35,450 bases of DNA from Naegleria gruberi (Eukaryota), in the NCBI GenBank assembly GCA_000004985.1, contig GG739040.1. One strand, given 5' to 3'. Below the pieces are notes generated by a model. That model saw nothing but the letters and a program-made list of their open reading frames with translations. It was not told the origin of the DNA and did not search any database. Each line of letters starts with the position of its first letter. Position 1 is the first letter of the stretch. Position numbers and translations under genes: made by a program. Of the stretch, positions 1 to 35,450 are shown one piece after another.

Positions 1-650
1 CCTTCCTCTTGATGGATACTATGAGGGATAACAAATTGAGAAAGCTATTCAGGGACCATTGTAAACAAGAAATGAGTTTGGATAATTACTTACTATTGGA
101 CAAAATTACAGATTACAAAATCCTGTGTGAAAAGTCCTTTGAAATTCAAGTATTCCTCTATGATGACATGAGCCCAAATTCTCATTCTGATTCTCTCTCT
201 GATTCAGGTAGTTCTGCAACTGCCAACTCCTCCAACCTGGACCATCAACACAAAAAGAAGAAGAAGAAGGGCTACACTGAGAAGGATCTCCATGAAATTG
301 AAAAGAAAAAGTACGAAATTGCCTTTGAAATTTACACTGATTTCCTCGATATCAATGGAGACAAATCAGTGAATATCAATAAGAGTGCTGCAGATAGAGT
401 TAAGGAACAATTGGATTACTTTGCAAGTGGTGAGAATGAACATTTGACTGATACTCTGTTTGATAATGTGGAAAGTGAAATATGTGTCTTGATGTTGGAT
501 ACTCATCATCGATTCAAGCAAACTGTGGAATTTCAGAAACAAACTCAAAAGCAACATGTTAAGAAGAATAAGGTCAAGTTTGAAAGTAATAAGGTGAAGA
601 ATTCGAGAAGTGATTTGAATCTGGATTCACTTAAAATTCCGACCAAATAA
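1..650 (+). CDS. RGS (regulator of G-protein signalling) domain protein, 5'-partial; stop TAA 648-650
   Basis: Frame 3 is open from the window edge with no upstream stop; the ORF track starts it at TTG 9 and the first ATG is at 12. The translation matches RGS-box landmarks recalled from RGS4-type domains: LFRDHCKQEMSLDNYLLLDKITDYK vs [32 protein letters not shown]...SVNIN vs KIYNEFI...EVNLD; FDNVESEICVLMLDTHHRFKQT vs [23 protein letters not shown]. A low-complexity insert (SDSLSDSGSS...HKKKKKKG, (AAG)5 at 251-265) sits between helices. The RGS box begins at the window edge, so the gene probably continues upstream. Confidence 0.75.
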   Translation, partial: FLLMDTMRDNKLRKLFRDHCKQEMSLDNYLLLDKITDYKILCEKSFEIQVFLYDDMSPNSHSDSLSDSGSSATANSSNLDHQHKKKKKKGYTEKDLHEIEKKKYEIAFEIYTDFLDINGDKSVNINKSAADRVKEQLDYFASGENEHLTDTLFDNVESEICVLMLDTHHRFKQTVEFQKQTQKQHVKKNKVKFESNKVKNSRSDLNLDSLKIPTK

Positions 651-1169: not shown

Positions 1170-4100
1170 NNNNNNNNNNNNNNNNNNNNNNNNNNNNNNN
1201 NNNNNNNNNNNNNNNNNNNNNNNNNNNNNNNNNNNNNNNNNNNNNNNNNNNNNNNNNNNNNNNNNNNNNNNNNNNNNNNNNNNNNNNNNNNNNNNNNNNN
1301 NNNNNNNNNNNNNNNNNNNNNNNNNNNNNNNNNNNNNNNNNNNNNNNNNNNNNNNNNNNNNNNNNNNNNNNNNNNNNNNNNNNNNNNNNNNNNNNNNNNN
1401 NNNNNNNNNNNNNNNNNNNNNNNNNNNNNNNNNNNNNNNNNNNNNNNNNNNNNNNNNNNNNNNNNNNNNNNNNNNNNNNNNNNNNNNNNNNNNNNNNNNN
1501 NNNNNNNNNNNNNNNNNNNNNNNNNNNNNNNNNNNNNNNNNNNNNNNNNNNNNNNNNNNNNNNNNNNNNNNNNNNNNNNNNNNNNNNNNNNNNNNNNNNN
1601 NNNNNNNNNNNNNNNNNNNNNNNNNNNNNNNNNNNNNNNNNNNNNNNNNNNNNNNNNNNNNNNNNNNNNNNNNNNNNNNNNNNNNNNNNNNNNNNNNNNN
1701 NNNNNNNNNNNNNNNNNNNNNNNNNNNNNNNNNNNNNNNNNNNNNNNNNNNNNNNNNNNNNNNNNNNNNNNNNNNNNNNNNNNNNNNNNNNNNNNNNNNN
1801 NNNNNNNNNNNNNNNNNNNNNNNNNNNNNNNNNNNNNNNNNNNNNNNNNNNNNNNNNNNNNNNNNNNNNNNNNNNNNNNNNNNNNNNNNNNNNNNNNNNN
1901 NNNNNNNNNNNNNNNNNNNNNNNNNNNNNNNNNNNNNNNNNNNNNNNNNNNNNNNNNNNNNNNNNNNNNNNNNNNNNNNNNNNNNNNNNNNNNNNNNNNN
2001 NNNNNNNNNNNNNNNNNNNNNNNNNNNNNNNNNNNNNNNNNNNNNNNNNNNNNNNNNNNNNNNNNNNNNNNNNNNNNNNNNNNNNNNNNNNNNNNNNNNN
2101 NNNNNNNNNNNNNNNNNNNNNNNNNNNNNNNNNNNNNNNNNNNNNNNNNNNNNNNNNNNNNNNNNNNNNNNNNNNNNNNNNNNNNNNNNNNNNNNNNNNN
2201 NNNNNNNNNNNNNNNNNNNNNNNNNNNNNNNNNNNNNNNNNNNNNNNNNNNNNNNNNNNNNNNNNNNNNNNNNNNNNNNNNNNNNNNNNNNNNNNNNNNN
2301 NNNNNNNNNNNNNNNNNNNNNNNNNNNNNNNNNNNNNNNNNNNNNNNNNNNNNNNNNNNNNNNNNNNNNNNNNNNNNNNNNNNNNNNNNNNNNNNNNNNN
2401 NNNNNNNNNNNNNNNNNNNNNNNNNNNNNNNNNNNNNNNNNNNNNNNNNNNNNNNNNNNNNNNNNNNNNNNNNNNNNNNNNNNNNNNNNNNNNNNNNNNN
2501 NNNNNNNNNNNNNNNNNNNNNNNNNNNNNNNNNNNNNNNNNNNNNNNNNNNNNNNNNNNNNNNNNNNNNNNNNNNNNNNNNNNNNNNNNNNNNNNNNNNN
2601 NNNNNNNNNNNNNNNNNNNNNNNNNNNNNNNNNNNNNNNNNNNNNNNNNNNNNNNNNNNNNNNNNNNNNNNNNNNNNNNNNNNNNNNNNNNNNNNNNNNN
2701 NNNNNNNNNNNNNNNNNNNNNNNNNNNNNNNNNNNNNNNNNNNNNNNNNNNNNNNNNNNNNNNNNNNNNNNNNNNNNNNNNNNNNNNNNNNNNNNNNNNN
2801 NNNNNNNNNNNNNNNNNNNNNNNNNNNNNNNNNNNNNNNNNNNNNNNNNNNNNNNNNNNNNNNNNNNNNNNNNNNNNNNNNNNNNNNNNNNNNNNNNNNN
2901 NNNNNNNNNNNNNNNNNNNNNNNNNNNNNNNNNNNNNNNNNNNNNNNNNNNNNNNNNNNNNNNNNNNNNNNNNNNNNNNNNNNNNNNNNNNNNNNNNNNN
3001 NNNNNNNNNNNNNNNNNNNNNNNNNNNNNNNNNNNNNNNNNNNNNNNNNNNNNNNNNNNNNNNNNNNNNNNNNNNNNNNNNNNNNNNNNNNNNNNNNNNN
3101 NNNNNNNNNNNNNNNNNNNNNNNNNNNNNNNNNNNNNNNNNNNNNNNNNNNNNNNNNNNNNNNNNNNNNNNNNNNNNNNNNNNNNNNNNNNNNNNNNNNN
3201 NNNNNNNNNNNNNNNNNNNNNNNNNNNNNNNNNNNNNNNNNNNNNNNNNNNNNNNNNNNNNNNNNNNNNNNNNNNNNNNNNNNNNNNNNNNNNNNNNNNN
3301 NNNNNNNNNNNNNNNNNNNNNNNNNNNNNNNNNNNNNNNNNNNNNNNNNNNNNNNNNNNNNNNNNNNNNNNNNNNNNNNNNNNNNNNNNNNNNNNNNNNN
3401 NNNNNNNNNNNNNNNNNNNNNNNNNNNNNNNNNNNNNNNNNNNNNNNNNNNNNNNNNNNNNNNNNNNNNNNNNNNNNNNNNNNNNNNNNNNNNNNNNNNN
3501 NNNNNNNNNNNNNNNNNNNNNNNNNNNNNNNNNNNNNNNNNNNNNNNNNNNNNNNNNNNNNNNNNNNNNNNNNNNNNNNNNNNNNNNNNNNNNNNNNNNN
3601 NNNNNNNNNNNNNNNNNNNNNNNNNNNNNNNNNNNNNNNNNNNNNNNNNNNNNNNNNNNNNNNNNNNNNNNNNNNNNNNNNNNNNNNNNNNNNNNNNNNN
3701 NNNNNNNNNNNNNNNNNNNNNNNNNNNNNNNNNNNNNNNNNNNNNNNNNNNNNNNNNNNNNNNNNNNNNNNNNNNNNNNNNNNNNNNNNNNNNNNNNNNN
3801 NNNNNNNNNNNNNNNNNNNNNNNNNNNNNNNNNNNNNNNNNNNNNNNNNNNNNNNNNNNNNNNNNNNNNNNNNNNNNNNNNNNNNNNNNNNNNNNNNNNN
3901 NNNNNNNNNNNNNNNNNNNNNNNNNNNNNNNNNNNNNNNNNNNNNNNNNNNNNNNNNNNNNNNNNNNNNNNNNNNNNNNNNNNNNNNNNNNNNNNNNNNN
4001 NNNNNNNNNNNNNNNNNNNNNNNNNNNNNNNNNNNNNNNNNNNNNNNNNNNNNNNNNNNNNNNNNNNNNNNNNNNNNNNNNNNNNNNNNNNNNNNNNNNN

Positions 4101-6338
4101 NNNNNNNNNNNNNNNNNNNNNNNNNNNNNNNNNNNNNNNNNNNNNNNNNNNNNNNNNNNNNNNNNNNNNNNNNNNNNNNNNNNNNNNNNNNNNNNNNNNN
4201 NNNNNNNNNNNNNNNNNNNNNNNNNNNNNNNNNNNNNNNNNNNNNNNNNNNNNNNNNNNNNNNNNNNNNNNNNNNNNNNNNNNNNNNNNNNNNNNNNNNN
4301 NNNNNNNNNNNNNNNNNNNNNNNNNNNNNNNNNNNNNNNNNNNNNNNNNNNNNNNNNNNNNNNNNNNNNNNNNNNNNNNNNNNNNNNNNNNNNNNNNNNN
4401 NNNNNNNNNNNNNNNNNNNNNNNNNNNNNNNNNNNNNNNNNNNNNNNNNNNNNNNNNNNNNNNNNNNNNNNNNNNNNNNNNNNNNNNNNNNNNNNNNNNN
4501 NNNNNNNNNNNNNNNNNNNNNNNNNNNNNNNNNNNNNNNNNNNNNNNNNNNNNNNNNNNNNNNNNNNNNNNNNNNNNNNNNNNNNNNNNNNNNNNNNNNN
4601 NNNNNNNNNNNNNNNNNNNNNNNNNNNNNNNNNNNNNNNNNNNNNNNNNNNNNNNNNNNNNNNNNNNNNNNNNNNNNNNNNNNNNNNNNNNNNNNNNNNN
4701 NNNNNNNNNNNNNNNNNNNNNNNNNNNNNNNNNNNNNNNNNNNNNNNNNNNNNNNNNNNNNNNNNNNNNNNNNNNNNNNNNNNNNNNNNNNNNNNNNNNN
4801 NNNNNNNNNNNNNNNNNNNNNNNNNNNNNNNNNNNNNNNNNNNNNNNNNNNNNNNNNNNNNNNNNNNNNNNNNNNNNNNNNNNNNNNNNNNNNNNNNNNN
4901 NNNNNNNNNNNNNNNNNNNNNNNNNNNNNNNNNNNNNNNNNNNNNNNNNNNNNNNNNNNNNNNNNNNNNNNNNNNNNNNNNNNNNNNNNNNNNNNNNNNN
5001 NNNNNNNNNNNNNNNNNNNNNNNNNNNNNNNNNNNNNNNNNNNNNNNNNNNNNNNNNNNNNNNNNNNNNNNNNNNNNNNNNNNNNNNNNNNNNNNNNNNN
5101 NNNNNNNNNNNNNNNNNNNNNNNNNNNNNNNNNNNNNNNNNNNNNNNNNNNNNNNNNNNNNNNNNNNNNNNNNNNNNNNNNNNNNNNNNNNNNNNNNNNN
5201 NNNNNNNNNNNNNNNNNNNNNNNNNNNNNNNNNNNNNNNNNNNNNNNNNNNNNNNNNNNNNNNNNNNNNNNNNNNNNNNNNNNNNNNNNNNNNNNNNNNN
5301 NNNNNNNNNNNNNNNNNNNNNNNNNNNNNNNNNNNNNNNNNNNNNNNNNNNNNNNNNNNNNNNNNNNNNNNNNNNNNNNNNNNNNNNNNNNNNNNNNNNN
5401 NNNNNNNNNNNNNNNNNNNNNNNNNNNNNNNNNNNNNNNNNNNNNNNNNNNNNNNNNNNNNNNNNNNNNNNNNNNNNNNNNNNNNNNNNNNNNNNNNNNN
5501 NNNNNNNNNNNNNNNNNNNNNNNNNNNNNNNNNNNNNNNNNNNNNNNNNNNNNNNNNNNNNNNNNNNNNNNNNNNNNNNNNNNNNNNNNNNNNNNNNNNN
5601 NNNNNNNNNNNNNNNNNNNNNNNNNNNNNNNNNNNNNNNNNNNNNNNNNNNNNNNNNNNNNNNNNNNNNNNNNNNNNNNNNNNNNNNNNNNNNNNNNNNN
5701 NNNNNNNNNNNNNNNNNNNNNNNNNNNNNNNNNNNNNNNNNNNNNNNNNNNNNNNNNNNNNNNNNNNNNNNNNNNNNNNNNNNNNNNNNNNNNNNNNNNN
5801 NNNNNNNNNNNNNNNNNNNNNNNNNNNNNNNNNNNNNNNNNNNNNNNNNNNNNNNNNNNNNNNNNNNNNNNNNNNNNNNNNNNNNNNNNNNNNNNNNNNN
5901 NNNNNNNNNNNNNNNNNNNNNNNNNNNNNNNNNNNNNNNNNNNNNNNNNNNNNNNNNNNNNNNNNNNNNNNNNNNNNNNNNNNNNNNNNNNNNNNNNNNN
6001 NNNNNNNNNNNNNNNNNNNNNNNNNNNNNNNNNNNNNNNNNNNNNNNNNNNNNNNNNNNNNNNNNNNNNNNNNNNNNNNNNNNNNNNNNNNNNNNNNNNN
6101 NNNNNNNNNNNNNNNNNNNNNNNNNNNNNNNNNNNNNNNNNNNNNNNNNNNNNNNNNNNNNNNNNNNNNNNNNNNNNNNNNNNNNNNNNNNNNNNNNNNN
6201 NNNNNNNNNNNNNNNNNNNNNNNNNNNNNNNNNNNNNNNNNNNNNNNNNNNNNNNNNNNNNNNNNNNNNNNNNNNNNNNNNNNNNNNNNNNNNNNNNNNN
6301 NNNNNNNNNNNNNNNNNNNNNNNNNNNNNNNNNNNNNN
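1170..6338. other. hard-masked block / assembly gap (5169 N)
   Basis: An uninterrupted run of n. Confidence 0.99.
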
Positions 6339-6340
6339 GA

Positions 6341-6397
6341 AAAGTTAATTACCATGTGTTAGTGCTTCCTCTCCATGATGAATATGCATTCGAATAG
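6341..6397 (+). CDS. possible 3' end of a plus-strand gene emerging from the masked block (..KVNYHVLVLPLHDEYAFE, stop TAG 6395-6397)
   Basis: 18 open codons then a stop, followed by 1.1 kb with no long ORF. The alternative is a minus-strand start ATG at 6353-6355 (MVINF..). Strand is unresolved. Confidence 0.3.
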   Translation, partial: KVNYHVLVLPLHDEYAFE

Positions 6398-6443
6398 ATT
6401 TTACAAACTAATTATTATACATTCATACAATCGTCTACAGTTT

Positions 6444-6754
6444 GTCATCTTACAGAATTCATCATTTTCCAATTGTTTGAATTCTTTTATCATTTAGAAA
6501 TGAGCGGGAACTTTACTCAATCTTGATATTCGAAACTCTTTCTTTGAGAAACAAGCAGATTGGAATTTTAAACAATAGTTGGAGGAGTAAAATACTTTAA
6601 AATGATGTCAATCTTCAATAATTAAGCGGTGACAATGACGACAATAGCCTCAAATATTGGAGCGAATCAACAAACGAAACTAAACTCCAAACTAAATTGT
6701 CATCTACAGTAAGAATCATCCACAAATGAAAACAATCTACAGTAAAGAATCATC
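6444..6754 (+). repeat. three copies of a ~22-nt direct repeat motif TGTCATCT(T)ACAG(T)AA(A)GAATCATC (6444-6465, 6699-6720, 6733-6754) plus a partial copy CGTCTACAGT at 6432-6441
   Basis: Read by eye. Copies 2 and 3 are 34 nt apart and near-identical; copy 1 is a variant (cttacagaattcatca). All are intergenic. Confidence 0.5.
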
Positions 6755-7260
6755 TATTCACATACCTTTAATTTTGTTCACAAATTAACCATTTTAGGAA
6801 ACTTTAAAGTTGGTAATTTCAATAATAATCAACAACAAGAACTTAAGAACAGAGAATCTCTTCTCTTTGGAACACGCTATACATCTTACTAATGTTTTAT
6901 CAAATTTAATTTGAAATCTGACAGTTTTACTTGCGCTTTAGCACTATACCTGCCAAAATATGGGACTTGAATCAAGAACTTCATTATGAGTAATGTACAA
7001 TGACAAAAAACCGTTCACTTACTTTGAGTGATTTCCTACTCGTTATGAGGCATTTGTTGAACATTATTGTTAGTGAAGTTAATGTCAGCAATCAACTAAG
7101 TACCGCCGATGATTTTCATGTTGTTTGCAAGTTAATATTTGAAAGGAAATTGTAAAGCAGCATTTGGTATTGCTTACTGGTTGATCAATTAATATAATAG
7201 TCTATGATTTCATCAAGTTTGGATTCCATTACAATGATGACTCGAGAGATTTATGTAATT

Positions 7261-7270
7261 TTGGCGCCAA
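7261..7270. promoter_or_regulatory. perfect 10-bp palindrome TTGGCGCCAA (E2F-like site), copy 2
   Basis: Context aatTTTGGCGCCAAgtttgg contains a full TTTGGCGC half-site. It is identical to 898-907. Confidence 0.4.
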
Positions 7271-7460
7271 GTTTGGTTTGTAAACAATCTTAAAGTAGAT
7301 GTTGCTCTCAGCAGTGATGGTCCTCTCGTAAAGATGACGACAATACAAACGATCAAATCTTTGGGCATTCATCATTTGATTCGAATACATTACAGAGAAG
7401 AGAAACCTCACTAAATATTTGAGAGAATAAACAAAGAATAAACAATTCAAGTTTTTTCAA

Positions 7461-7466
7461 TTTATT
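7461..7466 (-). promoter_or_regulatory. AATAAA polyadenylation hexamer (minus strand) 20-25 nt downstream of the TAA at 7486-7488
   Basis: Plus strand reads tttatt. The same spacing is seen after the minus-strand stop at 34985. Confidence 0.35.
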
Positions 7467-7485
7467 AGAATACATAAAGTATTTC

Positions 7486-7506
7486 TTAGAGTTGTTGAGC
7501 CATAGA
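7486..7506 (-). CDS. 3' end of a minus-strand gene lying in the masked block (..SMAQQL, stop TAA 7486-7488 by reverse complement)
   Basis: Only 6 codons are readable. Support comes from the AATAAA 20 nt downstream in the same orientation. Confidence 0.4.
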   Translation of the reverse strand, partial: SMAQQL

Positions 7507-33569: not shown

Positions 33570-33723
33570 GATTTTGGATTTTCGTGATGATCATTGTGAT
33601 GTGTTGGGAATTAGATATGCATCTTCATTGAATTATAACCGGATACTTTTGGAAATCAATGGAAGAAATTGTTGGAGAGATGAGGAATTTAATGCTGATT
33701 GTAAAGGATGGCATGTTTTATGA
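33570..33723 (+). CDS. C-terminal 50 codons of a frame-1 ORF emerging from the masked block (..ILDFRDDHCDVLGIRYASSLNYNRILLEINGRNCWRDEEFNADCKGWHVL, stop TGA 33721-33723)
   Basis: The frame is open from the mask edge. It overlaps the frame-2 ORF starting at ATG 33659 by 65 nt, so the two may be one gene joined by a +1 shift or indel. I see no homology. Confidence 0.3.
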
Positions 33724-34090
33724 AATATTGACTGATTCGAAGATTCCTGCCATTCAATTGTTTTGGGAAACGTTGTTTCACATTCTCAGAGATAGTCCAA
33801 TAATTATGGGCAGTATGAAATGTAAGAGATTTTACAATTTGGAGCTACCAATAGTTTCTGATCATATTCTGAGGAATATTATTGTGCATGTGATGAGGGC
33901 AGTTCAAGAACCAGTTTGGTTTTTGGAAATGATTGTCAATTCGGATAGAAAAAGGAGGGAAACTGTTCATTGTTTGGGATTTGAAGCGTATGTGAAACAT
34001 GTGCAAATTACGAATGGAAACCATGATCTGTATTCTGCCATTGTTGAGGAAAAGAAAGACTGGACTAGTTTGGTATCTCAAAAGGAGTGA
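33659..34090 (+). CDS. hypothetical protein segment A (143 codons), frame 2, ends at TGA 34088-34090
   Basis: Long ORF in AT-rich DNA, with an upstream in-frame TGA at 33629. Segments B and C follow in the same frame. Confidence 0.4.
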   Translation: MEEIVGEMRNLMLIVKDGMFYEILTDSKIPAIQLFWETLFHILRDSPIIMGSMKCKRFYNLELPIVSDHILRNIIVHVMRAVQEPVWFLEMIVNSDRKRRETVHCLGFEAYVKHVQITNGNHDLYSAIVEEKKDWTSLVSQKE

Positions 34091-34096
34091 CGATTC

Positions 34097-34450
34097 TTGA
34101 AATTTCTATCCGAATCAATGGATAGTTATCCAATGATTATGAAAGAATCAATCTATTCGGATTTTATTAATTCACAATTTCAAAGAGATTATGACAATGT
34201 CACCAAGTACAGTATTGATCTAGCTCAATTTCTCTACCTTAAACGAAATATTCCTATTAATCCAAATCAATCTGAACATTTATTTTCATTACTGGCAGCC
34301 ACACCTCTATTCAAACAAATATTTGACAAGCAATTGGAACAAGGGACCGATAGGAGAGTTTTTATAGATCAAATTTTCTTAAGAGAGTCAATTCTGACAT
34401 CTTTTATTTTAAATATGAACTTGGACATTTTGGAAATGTGTTATGAATAA
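34097..34450 (+). CDS. hypothetical protein segment B (117 codons), same frame as A, ends at TAA 34448-34450 then CAA TGA
   Basis: It starts 6 nt after the stop of A in the identical frame. That is too close to be an independent eukaryotic gene, so it is a continuation of A (via intron or read-through) or part of a pseudogene. Confidence 0.35.
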   Translation: MKFLSESMDSYPMIMKESIYSDFINSQFQRDYDNVTKYSIDLAQFLYLKRNIPINPNQSEHLFSLLAATPLFKQIFDKQLEQGTDRRVFIDQIFLRESILTSFILNMNLDILEMCYE

Positions 34451-34456
34451 CAATGA

Positions 34457-34906
34457 GAAATATTAGATGACAAGTCAATTGATTCGAATCTTTCCAAATG
34501 TCCTATTGTAAGCTATTTCATTCAAGCATCACTTACAGCAGAAAACATGATTGATGACCCCAAGAAAATGGTCAATCTCACATGTATGTATATTGAAAAG
34601 TTTACAGAACTATTCGAATCTAGAAATAGGAAAATTTGGGAAAGTTCAATGAGGGATATAATGGTAAAATTGGTAACAGTAGCAAGCTCTGAACTCTGCT
34701 CACTAACTGTTGGATCATATGAGTGGAAACAATGCTATACTGAACTATTCAAAAGACTCATTACAAAGAATATTGAAAAATTTGAACCAAATACGGATCT
34801 ATCATTTGTCTATTCTATTTCATGTCCACAAATTGTAAAATTCCTATTCGCAGAACAACCAAAACAATTCGTACAAATGTTGGAATTGAACGAAAACATT
34901 ATTTGA
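34457..34906 (+). CDS. hypothetical protein segment C (frame open from 34457; first ATG 34547), same frame as A and B, ends at TGA 34904-34906
   Basis: Same frame again. It carries 30 open codons upstream of the first ATG (EILDDKSIDSNLSKCPIVSYFIQASLTAEN-MIDDPKK..). Confidence 0.35.
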   Translation, partial: EILDDKSIDSNLSKCPIVSYFIQASLTAENMIDDPKKMVNLTCMYIEKFTELFESRNRKIWESSMRDIMVKLVTVASSELCSLTVGSYEWKQCYTELFKRLITKNIEKFEPNTDLSFVYSISCPQIVKFLFAEQPKQFVQMLELNENII

Positions 34907-34958
34907 ACGGTGGGCGAATGAACTTTATGCCCGGATTTTAGAAGAATTAGTATTTTGA

Positions 34959-34964
34959 TTTATT
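34959..34964 (-). promoter_or_regulatory. AATAAA polyadenylation hexamer (minus strand) 21 nt downstream of the TAA at 34985-34987
   Basis: Plus strand reads tttatt. The arrangement matches that at 7461-7466. Confidence 0.35.
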
Positions 34965-34984
34965 CTTCAGCAAACGCTAATAAT

Positions 34985-35450
34985 TTACAAGGATGGTTTA
35001 ACGATTGGCTTTGATGGTTTCTTACATGTCTTTCTCTTGATACAAATCTTCTTCTTGATTGACTTGCAACACTTTTTCTTTCCACCAACCAATTTGAATT
35101 TCTTACAAATCTTCTTTCCCTTTGAACGTTTCAAACACTTCTTATAATACTTCTTCTTGATACATCTTGGAGGAATAATAATTGTCTTGGCACAATACTT
35201 CTTCTTTTGATATTTGACACATTTGGAAATAGTCTTCTTGTGCTTACAGAACTTGATGGTCTTATGCTTGGCACAGAAGAATTTCTTCTTAATGAGACAA
35301 CACTTCTTAACTGATTTTCTCTCCTTACAATATTTAACCTTCTTATACTTGGCACATTTCTTTGCCCATGAAACAATCTTGCACTTTTTAACATATCTAC
35401 ATTTGGAAACCTTCTTATTGTAGGAATCAACAGTGTACTGTCGCAAATCT
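34985..35450 (-). CDS. Lys/Cys-rich periodic-repeat protein, 5'-partial (open to window end), stop TAA 34985-34987
   Basis: Over 153 open codons. Composition is 56 Lys (37%) and 17 Cys, with Cys at residues 16, 22, 31, 40, 49/50, 58, 67, 76, 85, 95, 104, 114, 126/127, 135, 141. That is a 9-residue period with units such as CAKYKKVKY, CKERKSVKK, CAKHKTIKF, CKHKKTISK. The underlying DNA is a degenerate ~27-nt tandem repeat. Lys is mostly AAG. An AATAAA lies 21 nt past the stop. Caveat: a stop-free in-frame repeat unit will keep an ORF open by itself. Confidence 0.45.
   Translation of the reverse strand, partial: DLRQYTVDSYNKKVSKCRYVKKCKIVSWAKKCAKYKKVKYCKERKSVKKCCLIKKKFFCAKHKTIKFCKHKKTISKCVKYQKKKYCAKTIIIPPRCIKKKYYKKCLKRSKGKKICKKFKLVGGKKKCCKSIKKKICIKRKTCKKPSKPIVKPSL
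35030..35410. repeat. degenerate ~27-nt tandem repeat (plus-strand motifs cttcttcttgat / ggcacaga / gacacatttgg recurring)
   Basis: Periodic CTT/TTT-rich units punctuated by ACA/GCA every ~27 nt. It also generates open shadow frames (35131-35430 minus, 35214-35423 plus). Confidence 0.5.

Follow-up and report, generated by a model that had tools for sequence, protein, structure and literature searches.

The stretch of DNA analysed here, called the window below, is one entire small scaffold of Naegleria gruberi (GG739040.1; 35,450 nucleotides). At its far end lies, on the minus strand, an open reading frame (ORF) rich in lysine (K) and cysteine (C), the K/C ORF. Judged from its relatives in sequence databases, this ORF is the 3' part of an unannotated N. 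gruberi gene from a family of apparently secreted proteins that combine a high lysine content with periodically spaced cysteines. Most of the scaffold consists of gaps: 31,232 of the 35,450 positions (88%) are N, in two runs at 1170-6338 and 7507-33569, and the 4,218 real bases are at 1-1169, 6339-7506 and 33570-35450. Because the window is the complete scaffold, it is the end of the assembly, and not the choice of window, that truncates the K/C ORF. The missing 5' part of the gene, which would lie beyond this end, is expected to encode a signal peptide and to run to about 150 codons or more.

The K/C ORF and its cysteine period

The K/C ORF supplies the 154 C-terminal codons of the predicted protein (34988-35449, minus strand), stays open to the scaffold end and terminates in a TAA codon at 34985-34987 on the same strand. 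An AATAAA hexamer at 34959-34964 (minus strand), 21 nucleotides past this stop, is a putative poly(A) signal, and an environmental relative of the gene (in locus L002) has a similar AAATAAA about 40 nucleotides past its own stop. Lysine makes up 36.4% of the encoded residues and cysteine 11.0%. The cysteine-periodic region extends from C17 to C142 (35024-35401, minus strand) and contains 17 cysteines with a median gap of 9 residues, the successive gaps being 6, 9, 9, 9, 1, 8, 9, 9, 9, 10, 9, 10, 12, 1, 8 and 6. If each adjacent pair of cysteines (gaps of 1 and 8) is taken as a single interval of 9, there are 13 consecutive intervals of 9 to 12 residues. Nine cysteine pairs are separated by exactly nine positions, compared with an expectation of 1.7, and none of 100,000 shuffled sequences reached nine. 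Apart from two CC pairs the cysteines are isolated, and the ORF contains neither CxC nor CxxC. Codon use (AAG 42 to AAA 14; TGT 15 to TGC 2) resembles that of an RGS-domain gene on the same scaffold. Other frames through the region are also partly open: a stretch of 105 codons in minus-strand frame +1, and stretches of 70 and 62 codons in frames of the plus strand.

An earlier, sequence-only reading of the window had described a minus-strand ORF open to the window end, with about 37% lysine and 11% cysteine, cysteines about nine residues apart over at least 13 units, AATAAA 21 nucleotides past the TAA and other frames open as well. Our measurements agree with that description on all of these points. 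The same reading proposed that the ORF is built on a 27-nucleotide coding repeat, which our analysis contradicts. Tandem Repeats Finder detects no array at the ORF even at a score of 30, and nucleotide autocorrelation relative to codon-shuffled controls gives z = 1.5 at lag 27, z = 4.2 at lag 54 and z = 3.2 at lag 81; head-to-tail copies of a 27-nucleotide minisatellite are thus found by neither method.

We also compared residues at the protein level, holding cysteine positions fixed and shuffling all others. The non-cysteine residues show no similarity at a lag of 9 amino acids (z from -0.9 to 0.5) and clear similarity at a lag of 27 (z = 4.1; residues 17-105). Three copies of a 27-residue (81-nucleotide) super-repeat lie at 35135-35383 on the minus strand (residues 23-49, 50-76 and 77-105), and each consists of three distinct 9-residue modules, as in CAKYKKVKY, CAKHKTIKF and CAKTIIIPP. 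Given similarity at lag 27 and none at lag 9, the repeat unit is a 27-residue triplet of different modules. The 9-residue period is a feature of cysteine placement and composition, nested within an old 81-nucleotide repeat that has since diverged. An 18-residue super-period, hinted at by the nucleotide signal at lag 54, was rejected, as the protein-level signal at lag 18 is only z = 1.1-1.8.

A family of related proteins in Naegleria

Relatives of the K/C ORF were sought by an exhaustive phmmer search of 1.84 billion representative proteins at E <= 1e-3, which returned 12 proteins. Those with names are NAEGRDRAFT_76199 (P0007; XP_002668872; 5.6e-69) and NAEGRDRAFT_67458 (P0009; XP_002677436; 9.5e-22) of N. 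gruberi, FDP41_004030 (P0011; XP_044561448; 1.5e-9) of N. fowleri and C9374_009239 (P0014; XP_044544590; 8.5e-6) of N. lovaniensis. All named matches therefore belong to Naegleria and are labelled predicted or hypothetical, and the remainder are environmental. A profile search revealed an additional N. fowleri member (P0018). The K/C family appears from these searches to be small and, among named sequences, to be found only in Naegleria. The sequence-only reading matched the translated repeat to no known family and suggested a database search, and the search described here leads to a family that is likewise uncharacterised throughout. Pfam has nothing for the ORF or for seven family members, except for SAM and PB1 domains in the N. 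gruberi protein model P0007.

P0007, encoded on a separate 39.8-kb N. gruberi scaffold, is the closest relative: over window residues 19-154 it is 96% identical, with five conservative substitutions (I/L, Q/N, T/S, I/V and V/I) and no insertions or deletions. Two soil fragments (P0001 and P0002, from SRR3989338) share 76-80% identity with the first ~50 residues of the window ORF, and begin with a signal-peptide-like sequence followed by TVDSY and K/C modules. These two fragments are almost identical to one another, but P0001 contains ~107 additional in-frame residues (12 cysteine modules) between two KKVCD.Y motifs, a block that is either natural variation in module copy number or a jump by the protein-level assembler. 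A first, word-indexed protein search had found only the two soil fragments; it missed the 96%-identical P0007 and gave no N. gruberi model covering the K/C ORF. For low-complexity queries this is instructive, since it took an exhaustive HMMER search to reveal the family of this lysine-rich ORF. JGI metagenome contigs were scanned as well, once with P0001 and once with the window ORF as query, and neither scan turned up a related locus.

The four named Naegleria relatives are true homologues of the window ORF and share its cysteine register, its C-terminal block and a D-x-Y linker; the window copy differs in being truncated and unannotated. In the family alignment (A2), members with as little as 14% lysine still keep the cysteine columns in register. 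The most conserved block, PPRCIKK..KKC.KRS.G.KIC.K(F/Y)..VGGKK.C...KK..C, corresponds to 35024-35173 of the window (minus strand). Every member has a median cysteine gap of 9, and 103 of the 209 gaps family-wide (49%) are exactly 9, with 69% between 8 and 11. Of the features by which membership is recognised, the window ORF shows sequence similarity to several members, the median gap of 9, the conserved C-terminal block and the linker; a signal peptide, which all full-length relatives have as judged by eye, would belong to the part beyond the scaffold end.

Full-length members are 301 (P0009), 379 (P0011), 369 (P0018) and 430 (P0014) amino acids long, and the spliced environmental gene of L002 encodes 380. 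The N-termini of P0001, P0002, P0009, P0011, P0014, P0016, P0018 and the L002 gene product, read by eye, look like signal peptides (MK or MR, a hydrophobic stretch, then small residues), and the AlphaFold2 (AF2) model renders residues 3-18 of P0009 as a lone helix. There is no obvious hydrophobic membrane span and no known domain in the full-length members. Their layout is a signal peptide, a (V/I)D(S/T)Y-type motif, a cysteine-periodic half, a cysteine-free D-x-Y linker and a second cysteine-periodic half; some members also carry DTYKP or DSYKP repeats at the C-terminus. The linkers are short and contain tyrosine, proline and lysine (VDSY, DTYKP). D-x-Y motifs thus occur in the full-length relatives after the signal peptide, between the halves and at C-termini. 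The window copy comprises one linker motif and the C-terminal cysteine-periodic half. Its motif is TVDSY (residues 6-10; 35420-35434, minus strand), which aligns with the VDSY of P0001, P0002 and P0009.

Lysine content ranges from 14% to 39% across the family, and isoelectric points (pI) from 9.2 to 10.3. The window copy is the most lysine-rich member apart from its sister copy P0007 (36%, as against 14-28%). Because the cysteine register is kept in the least basic members, the cysteine scaffold is the conserved feature of the family, and extreme lysine content is peculiar to the N. gruberi copies. Mature proteins of the five full-length members contain 30, 32, 32, 37 and 33 cysteines. Residues around the cysteines follow a strand-like pattern, with hydrophobic or aromatic residues at -1, +1 and +3, basic residues at +2 and never a hydrophobic residue at -2. 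Two longer environmental relatives (P0016, at L001 3836-5977, and P0017, the longer of the two; 713-742 amino acids) have the family domain in C-terminal position and are much less basic. They have an additional cysteine-rich N-terminal region with many C-P motifs, and the gene adjoins several genes for Ras-family GTPases.

Selection was estimated from the ratio of nonsynonymous to synonymous divergence (dN/dS) between the spliced coding sequences of two family genes, one from N. fowleri (L003 8001-9343) and one environmental (L002). The two are 60% identical at the protein level and share 32 of 34 cysteine columns, with dN = 0.33, dS = 1.83 and dN/dS = 0.18, a ratio that shows purifying selection within the family. 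The N. fowleri gene is single-copy, lies among ordinary genes (ribosomal protein S24e, kinesin and a bromodomain protein) and has introns at L003 8239-8346 and 9133-9227 (GTAAGT...AG). In the environmental gene, a 44-nucleotide intron at L002 1743-1786 (GTAAGT...ATAG) occupies a third position, where a prokaryote-style gene caller had split the gene, and the corresponding part of the window ORF is free of introns. Such unshared positions suggest that introns were gained or lost within a young family.

These data decide against the alternative that the K/C ORF is a non-coding minisatellite or a chance-open frame in A/G-rich repetitive DNA. The partial openness of other frames (105, 70 and 62 codons) could be taken in its favour. 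It is nonetheless refuted by the lack of any detectable tandem repeat, by protein homologues with conserved cysteines in three species and by the dN/dS of 0.18, and the AAG-rich codon use, like that of the RGS gene, is a further point against it; we give it practically no weight. The proposal of the sequence-only reading that this is a real, selected coding sequence is accordingly upheld by the 96%-identical copy without indels, by the cysteine register of the homologues and by the selection estimate.

The scaffold edge, a fused gene model and neighbouring genes

The last bases of the scaffold probably contain a 1-nucleotide indel (35437-35450, minus strand). Here the ORF frame gives DLRQ(Y), and ICD is encoded in the adjacent frame at 35440-35448. 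In the homologues this place reads VCDKYTVDSY (P0001 and P0002) or ICDSY (P0009), with (V/I)CD(K/S)Y directly ahead of TVDSY; one added base at 35438/35439 would restore ICD(K/S)YTVDSY. The anomaly is either a sequencing error in the last dozen bases or a real frameshift of this copy.

The window copy might be a non-functional duplicate or an alternative-haplotype fragment (a pseudogene or a haplotig) of NAEGRDRAFT_76199, a status that would be compatible with any view of the function of the family. In keeping with this, it is 96% identical to a copy located on a different small scaffold, has a probable frame disruption at 35438/35439 and lies at the extreme end of a gap-rich scaffold. Yet the 154 codons are intact, all five differences from the sister copy are conservative, and single-base errors at scaffold ends are a common sequencing artefact; we consider a defunct copy unlikely.

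The sister copy itself is known from a 443-amino-acid model (P0007) in which SAM and PB1 domains, both recognised by Pfam, are joined to the repeats from KYVKKCKIVSW onwards. By comparison with the window sequence, the apparent splice acceptor in this model would be the AG of an AGA codon (R18 of the window ORF; 35396-35398, minus strand). Coding conservation with P0001, P0002 and P0009 extends upstream of the model junction (TVDSY..KKC), which makes the joining of these cytosolic signalling domains to a secretory-type domain with 16 cysteines most likely an artefact of the gene model. The predictor probably combined two separate genes, taking a cryptic AG within the repeat ORF as the acceptor.

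This bears on the possibility that K/C proteins are basic intracellular proteins that bind nucleic acid or metal, including a version in which the SAM and PB1 fusion is real. Very high lysine content together with regular cysteines, and the P0007 model, in which the repeats follow SAM and PB1 domains of cytosolic type, are what speak for it. Against this, the fusion is probably artefactual given the conservation upstream of its junction, all other full-length relatives have signal peptides, and metal-chelating CxC or CxxC clusters are lacking. An intracellular binder is accordingly very improbable. The sequence-only reading had raised both kinds of binding. Nucleic-acid binding finds no support, since the signal peptides with which the full-length relatives start imply entry to the secretory pathway. 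Nor is metal binding borne out by a protein whose cysteines, apart from two CC pairs, stand singly about 9 residues apart.

On the plus strand, the K/C gene is faced by a frame of ~445 codons (33572-34906), and the stop codons of these convergent genes are 78 nucleotides apart. This frame is broken by TGA at 34088-34090, TAA at 34448-34450 and TGA at 34454-34456. A GT...AG interval at 34440-34538 (99 nucleotides) would excise the last two stops and preserve the frame, and no good intron is found around the first. Pfam finds no match in the frame, which could be an intron-containing gene or a decaying one. We dropped an alternative genetic code as an explanation of the in-frame stops, introns or decay being likelier in N. 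gruberi, which uses the standard code.

At the other end of the scaffold, the ORF at 9-647 (plus strand) encodes an RGS domain (PF00615, 3.8e-8) and matches a predicted protein of N. gruberi (P0003) at 100% identity. Its product includes a serine-rich insert and a run of six lysines, and has relatives at 73% and 66% identity in ENA metagenome assemblies and at 47% in N. lovaniensis. The AT-rich intergenic DNA 3' of this gene (646-1025) contains short tandem repeats with periods of 7, 11 and 14 nucleotides according to Tandem Repeats Finder, and looks ordinary.

Candidate functions of the K/C proteins

The sequence-only reading had also listed a structural protein among its options, and this is the one that we favour. 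We tentatively propose that K/C proteins are secreted, disulfide-braced and perhaps cross-linked polycationic structural proteins of the extracellular space, most plausibly of the cyst wall. The protein would be secreted and its cysteines oxidised to disulfides, which would brace a rod rich in beta-hairpins and possibly link molecules to one another. The resulting polycationic product could then bind anionic polymers of a wall or matrix, most plausibly in the cyst wall, in a mode of action like that of apicomplexan oocyst wall proteins, without kinship to them. Consistent with this proposal are the cyst-forming habit of the genus, the signal peptides recognised by eye, the periodic and conserved cysteines and the beta-rich structure predictions, and three of the five full-length members have an even number of cysteines when mature (30, 32 and 32). 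Secretion of the window copy, disulfide formation and a wall or matrix role are thus what we infer for the gene.

Structure prediction gives some detail. The AF2 model of the ORF, built on a 12-sequence alignment, shows long beta-hairpins, its only elements of moderate confidence, in residues 61-140 at a predicted local distance difference test (pLDDT) of 72-86 (means over 10-residue blocks, 69-86). Confidence is thus best in the region of the family's most conserved block. A model of the full-length paralogue P0009 (mean pLDDT 48.6) is too poor for fold assignment. A sequence-profile search of the PDB gave no match beyond a chance one to ribosomal protein L17 (E = 0.41), and a fold comparison with the PDB found none.

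Several observations weigh against a structural wall protein. Confidence in the structure models is low overall (mean pLDDT 58 for the ORF and 49 for P0009), and two of the full-length members have an odd number of mature cysteines, 37 and 33. Extreme lysine content is not conserved family-wide, and the core function may therefore be something other than binding by charge. Only about 1-3 family genes were found per genome, a rather low number if the protein were a main constituent of the wall. The window copy could be defective in view of the probable frameshift at the scaffold edge, and its own signal peptide is out of view, the 5' end of the gene being beyond the scaffold. The family's locus tags occur in no indexed paper, and its accessions are absent from the supplements of a paper on copper in N. 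gruberi and N. fowleri and of a transcriptome study of cysts and trophozoites in N. fowleri. In the literature searched, we found no published identification of cyst-wall or extracellular-matrix proteins of Naegleria.

In a bacterivorous amoeba, a secreted cationic protein might instead be antimicrobial or otherwise membrane-active, with lysine-rich, disulfide-stabilised amphipathic beta-hairpins that bind to the envelopes of bacteria and disrupt them, perhaps once the protein has been cut into smaller peptides. Naegleria does produce pore-forming peptides from multi-peptide precursors, and beta-hairpin antimicrobial peptides are cysteine-braced and cationic. The signal peptides, a pI of about 10, the predicted beta-hairpins and the alternation of hydrophobic and basic positions around the cysteines are compatible with such a role. 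However, the mature proteins have 280-400 residues and 30-37 cysteines, with no recognisable processing sites or spacer pattern, and not the fewer than 100 residues and two to four disulfides of small beta-hairpin or defensin-type peptides; they also lack similarity to any known antimicrobial peptide family. Moreover, relatives with 14-18% lysine keep the cysteine scaffold, which argues that selection preserves the scaffold rather than the charge. An antimicrobial role therefore seems unlikely to us.

Another extracellular possibility is an adhesive or coat protein, used in substrate attachment or as a surface coat, that acts through lysine, cysteine and the tyrosine of YKP-type motifs, as in the cement proteins of mussels and barnacles. 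Several members have repeated (V/I)D(S/T)YKP motifs at their termini, and a high lysine content, 9-16% aromatic residues and a secretion signal would suit such a role. In the window copy, however, the motif occurs just once, and the C-terminus (KKPSKPIVKPSL) is without tyrosine. We therefore rate adhesion as a decidedly unlikely function.

The favoured structural role can be compared with known systems. COWPs have a signal peptide, no transmembrane domain and a cysteine every 10-12 residues, and intra- and intermolecular disulfides are proposed to strengthen the wall (PMC12548878). K/C proteins resemble COWPs and other oocyst wall proteins in having an apparent signal peptide, no obvious transmembrane domain and cysteines that recur regularly after a few residues. 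They differ in having a period of 9 rather than 10-12 and in being much more basic, and their location in a wall is suggested by analogy. There is no Pfam match and no apicomplexan among the named phmmer matches that would indicate homology to these proteins, no direct comparison with COWPs having been run. COWPs are also larger than the K/C family proteins.

A second point of comparison is the antifreeze protein of Tenebrio, which has a 12-residue repeat with a cysteine every 6 residues and represents a disulfide-braced type of beta-solenoid or beta-hairpin protein. Short repeats, strictly periodic cysteines and an all-beta structure, predicted in the case of the K/C family, are common to both. 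Metallothioneins and protamine-like proteins are similar only in their high content of cysteine, lysine or arginine. They are cytosolic or nuclear and lack a signal peptide, whereas the relatives of the window ORF are secretory. Metallothioneins furthermore consist of ~30% cysteine in CxC and CxxC clusters, in contrast to the 9-11% of mostly isolated, evenly spaced cysteines in the K/C family; the window ORF, with 11% cysteine and neither motif, does not look like one.

Periodic-cysteine secreted structural proteins are already known as a kind, and the K/C family is without a detectable relative among them. A more specific version of the structural proposal is that the family is a new, lineage-restricted extracellular building block, with a disulfide-laddered beta-hairpin fold that the PDB does not contain and in which cysteines recur every 9 residues. 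The protein framework of the cyst wall in Naegleria, the pathogen N. fowleri included, would then consist of it, and its origin would be independent of that of the periodic-cysteine oocyst wall proteins of Apicomplexa. We regard this version as possible and rather less than probable.

For the reference annotation of N. gruberi, the analysis flags one unannotated gene fragment and one probably mis-fused model, NAEGRDRAFT_76199. If the K/C proteins are components of the wall or surface, they would offer a route to understanding how the resistant cyst is built, and would represent an independent evolution of periodic-cysteine wall proteins. Since the family is present in the pathogen N. fowleri, its members would in that case also be candidates for a genus-specific diagnostic antigen.

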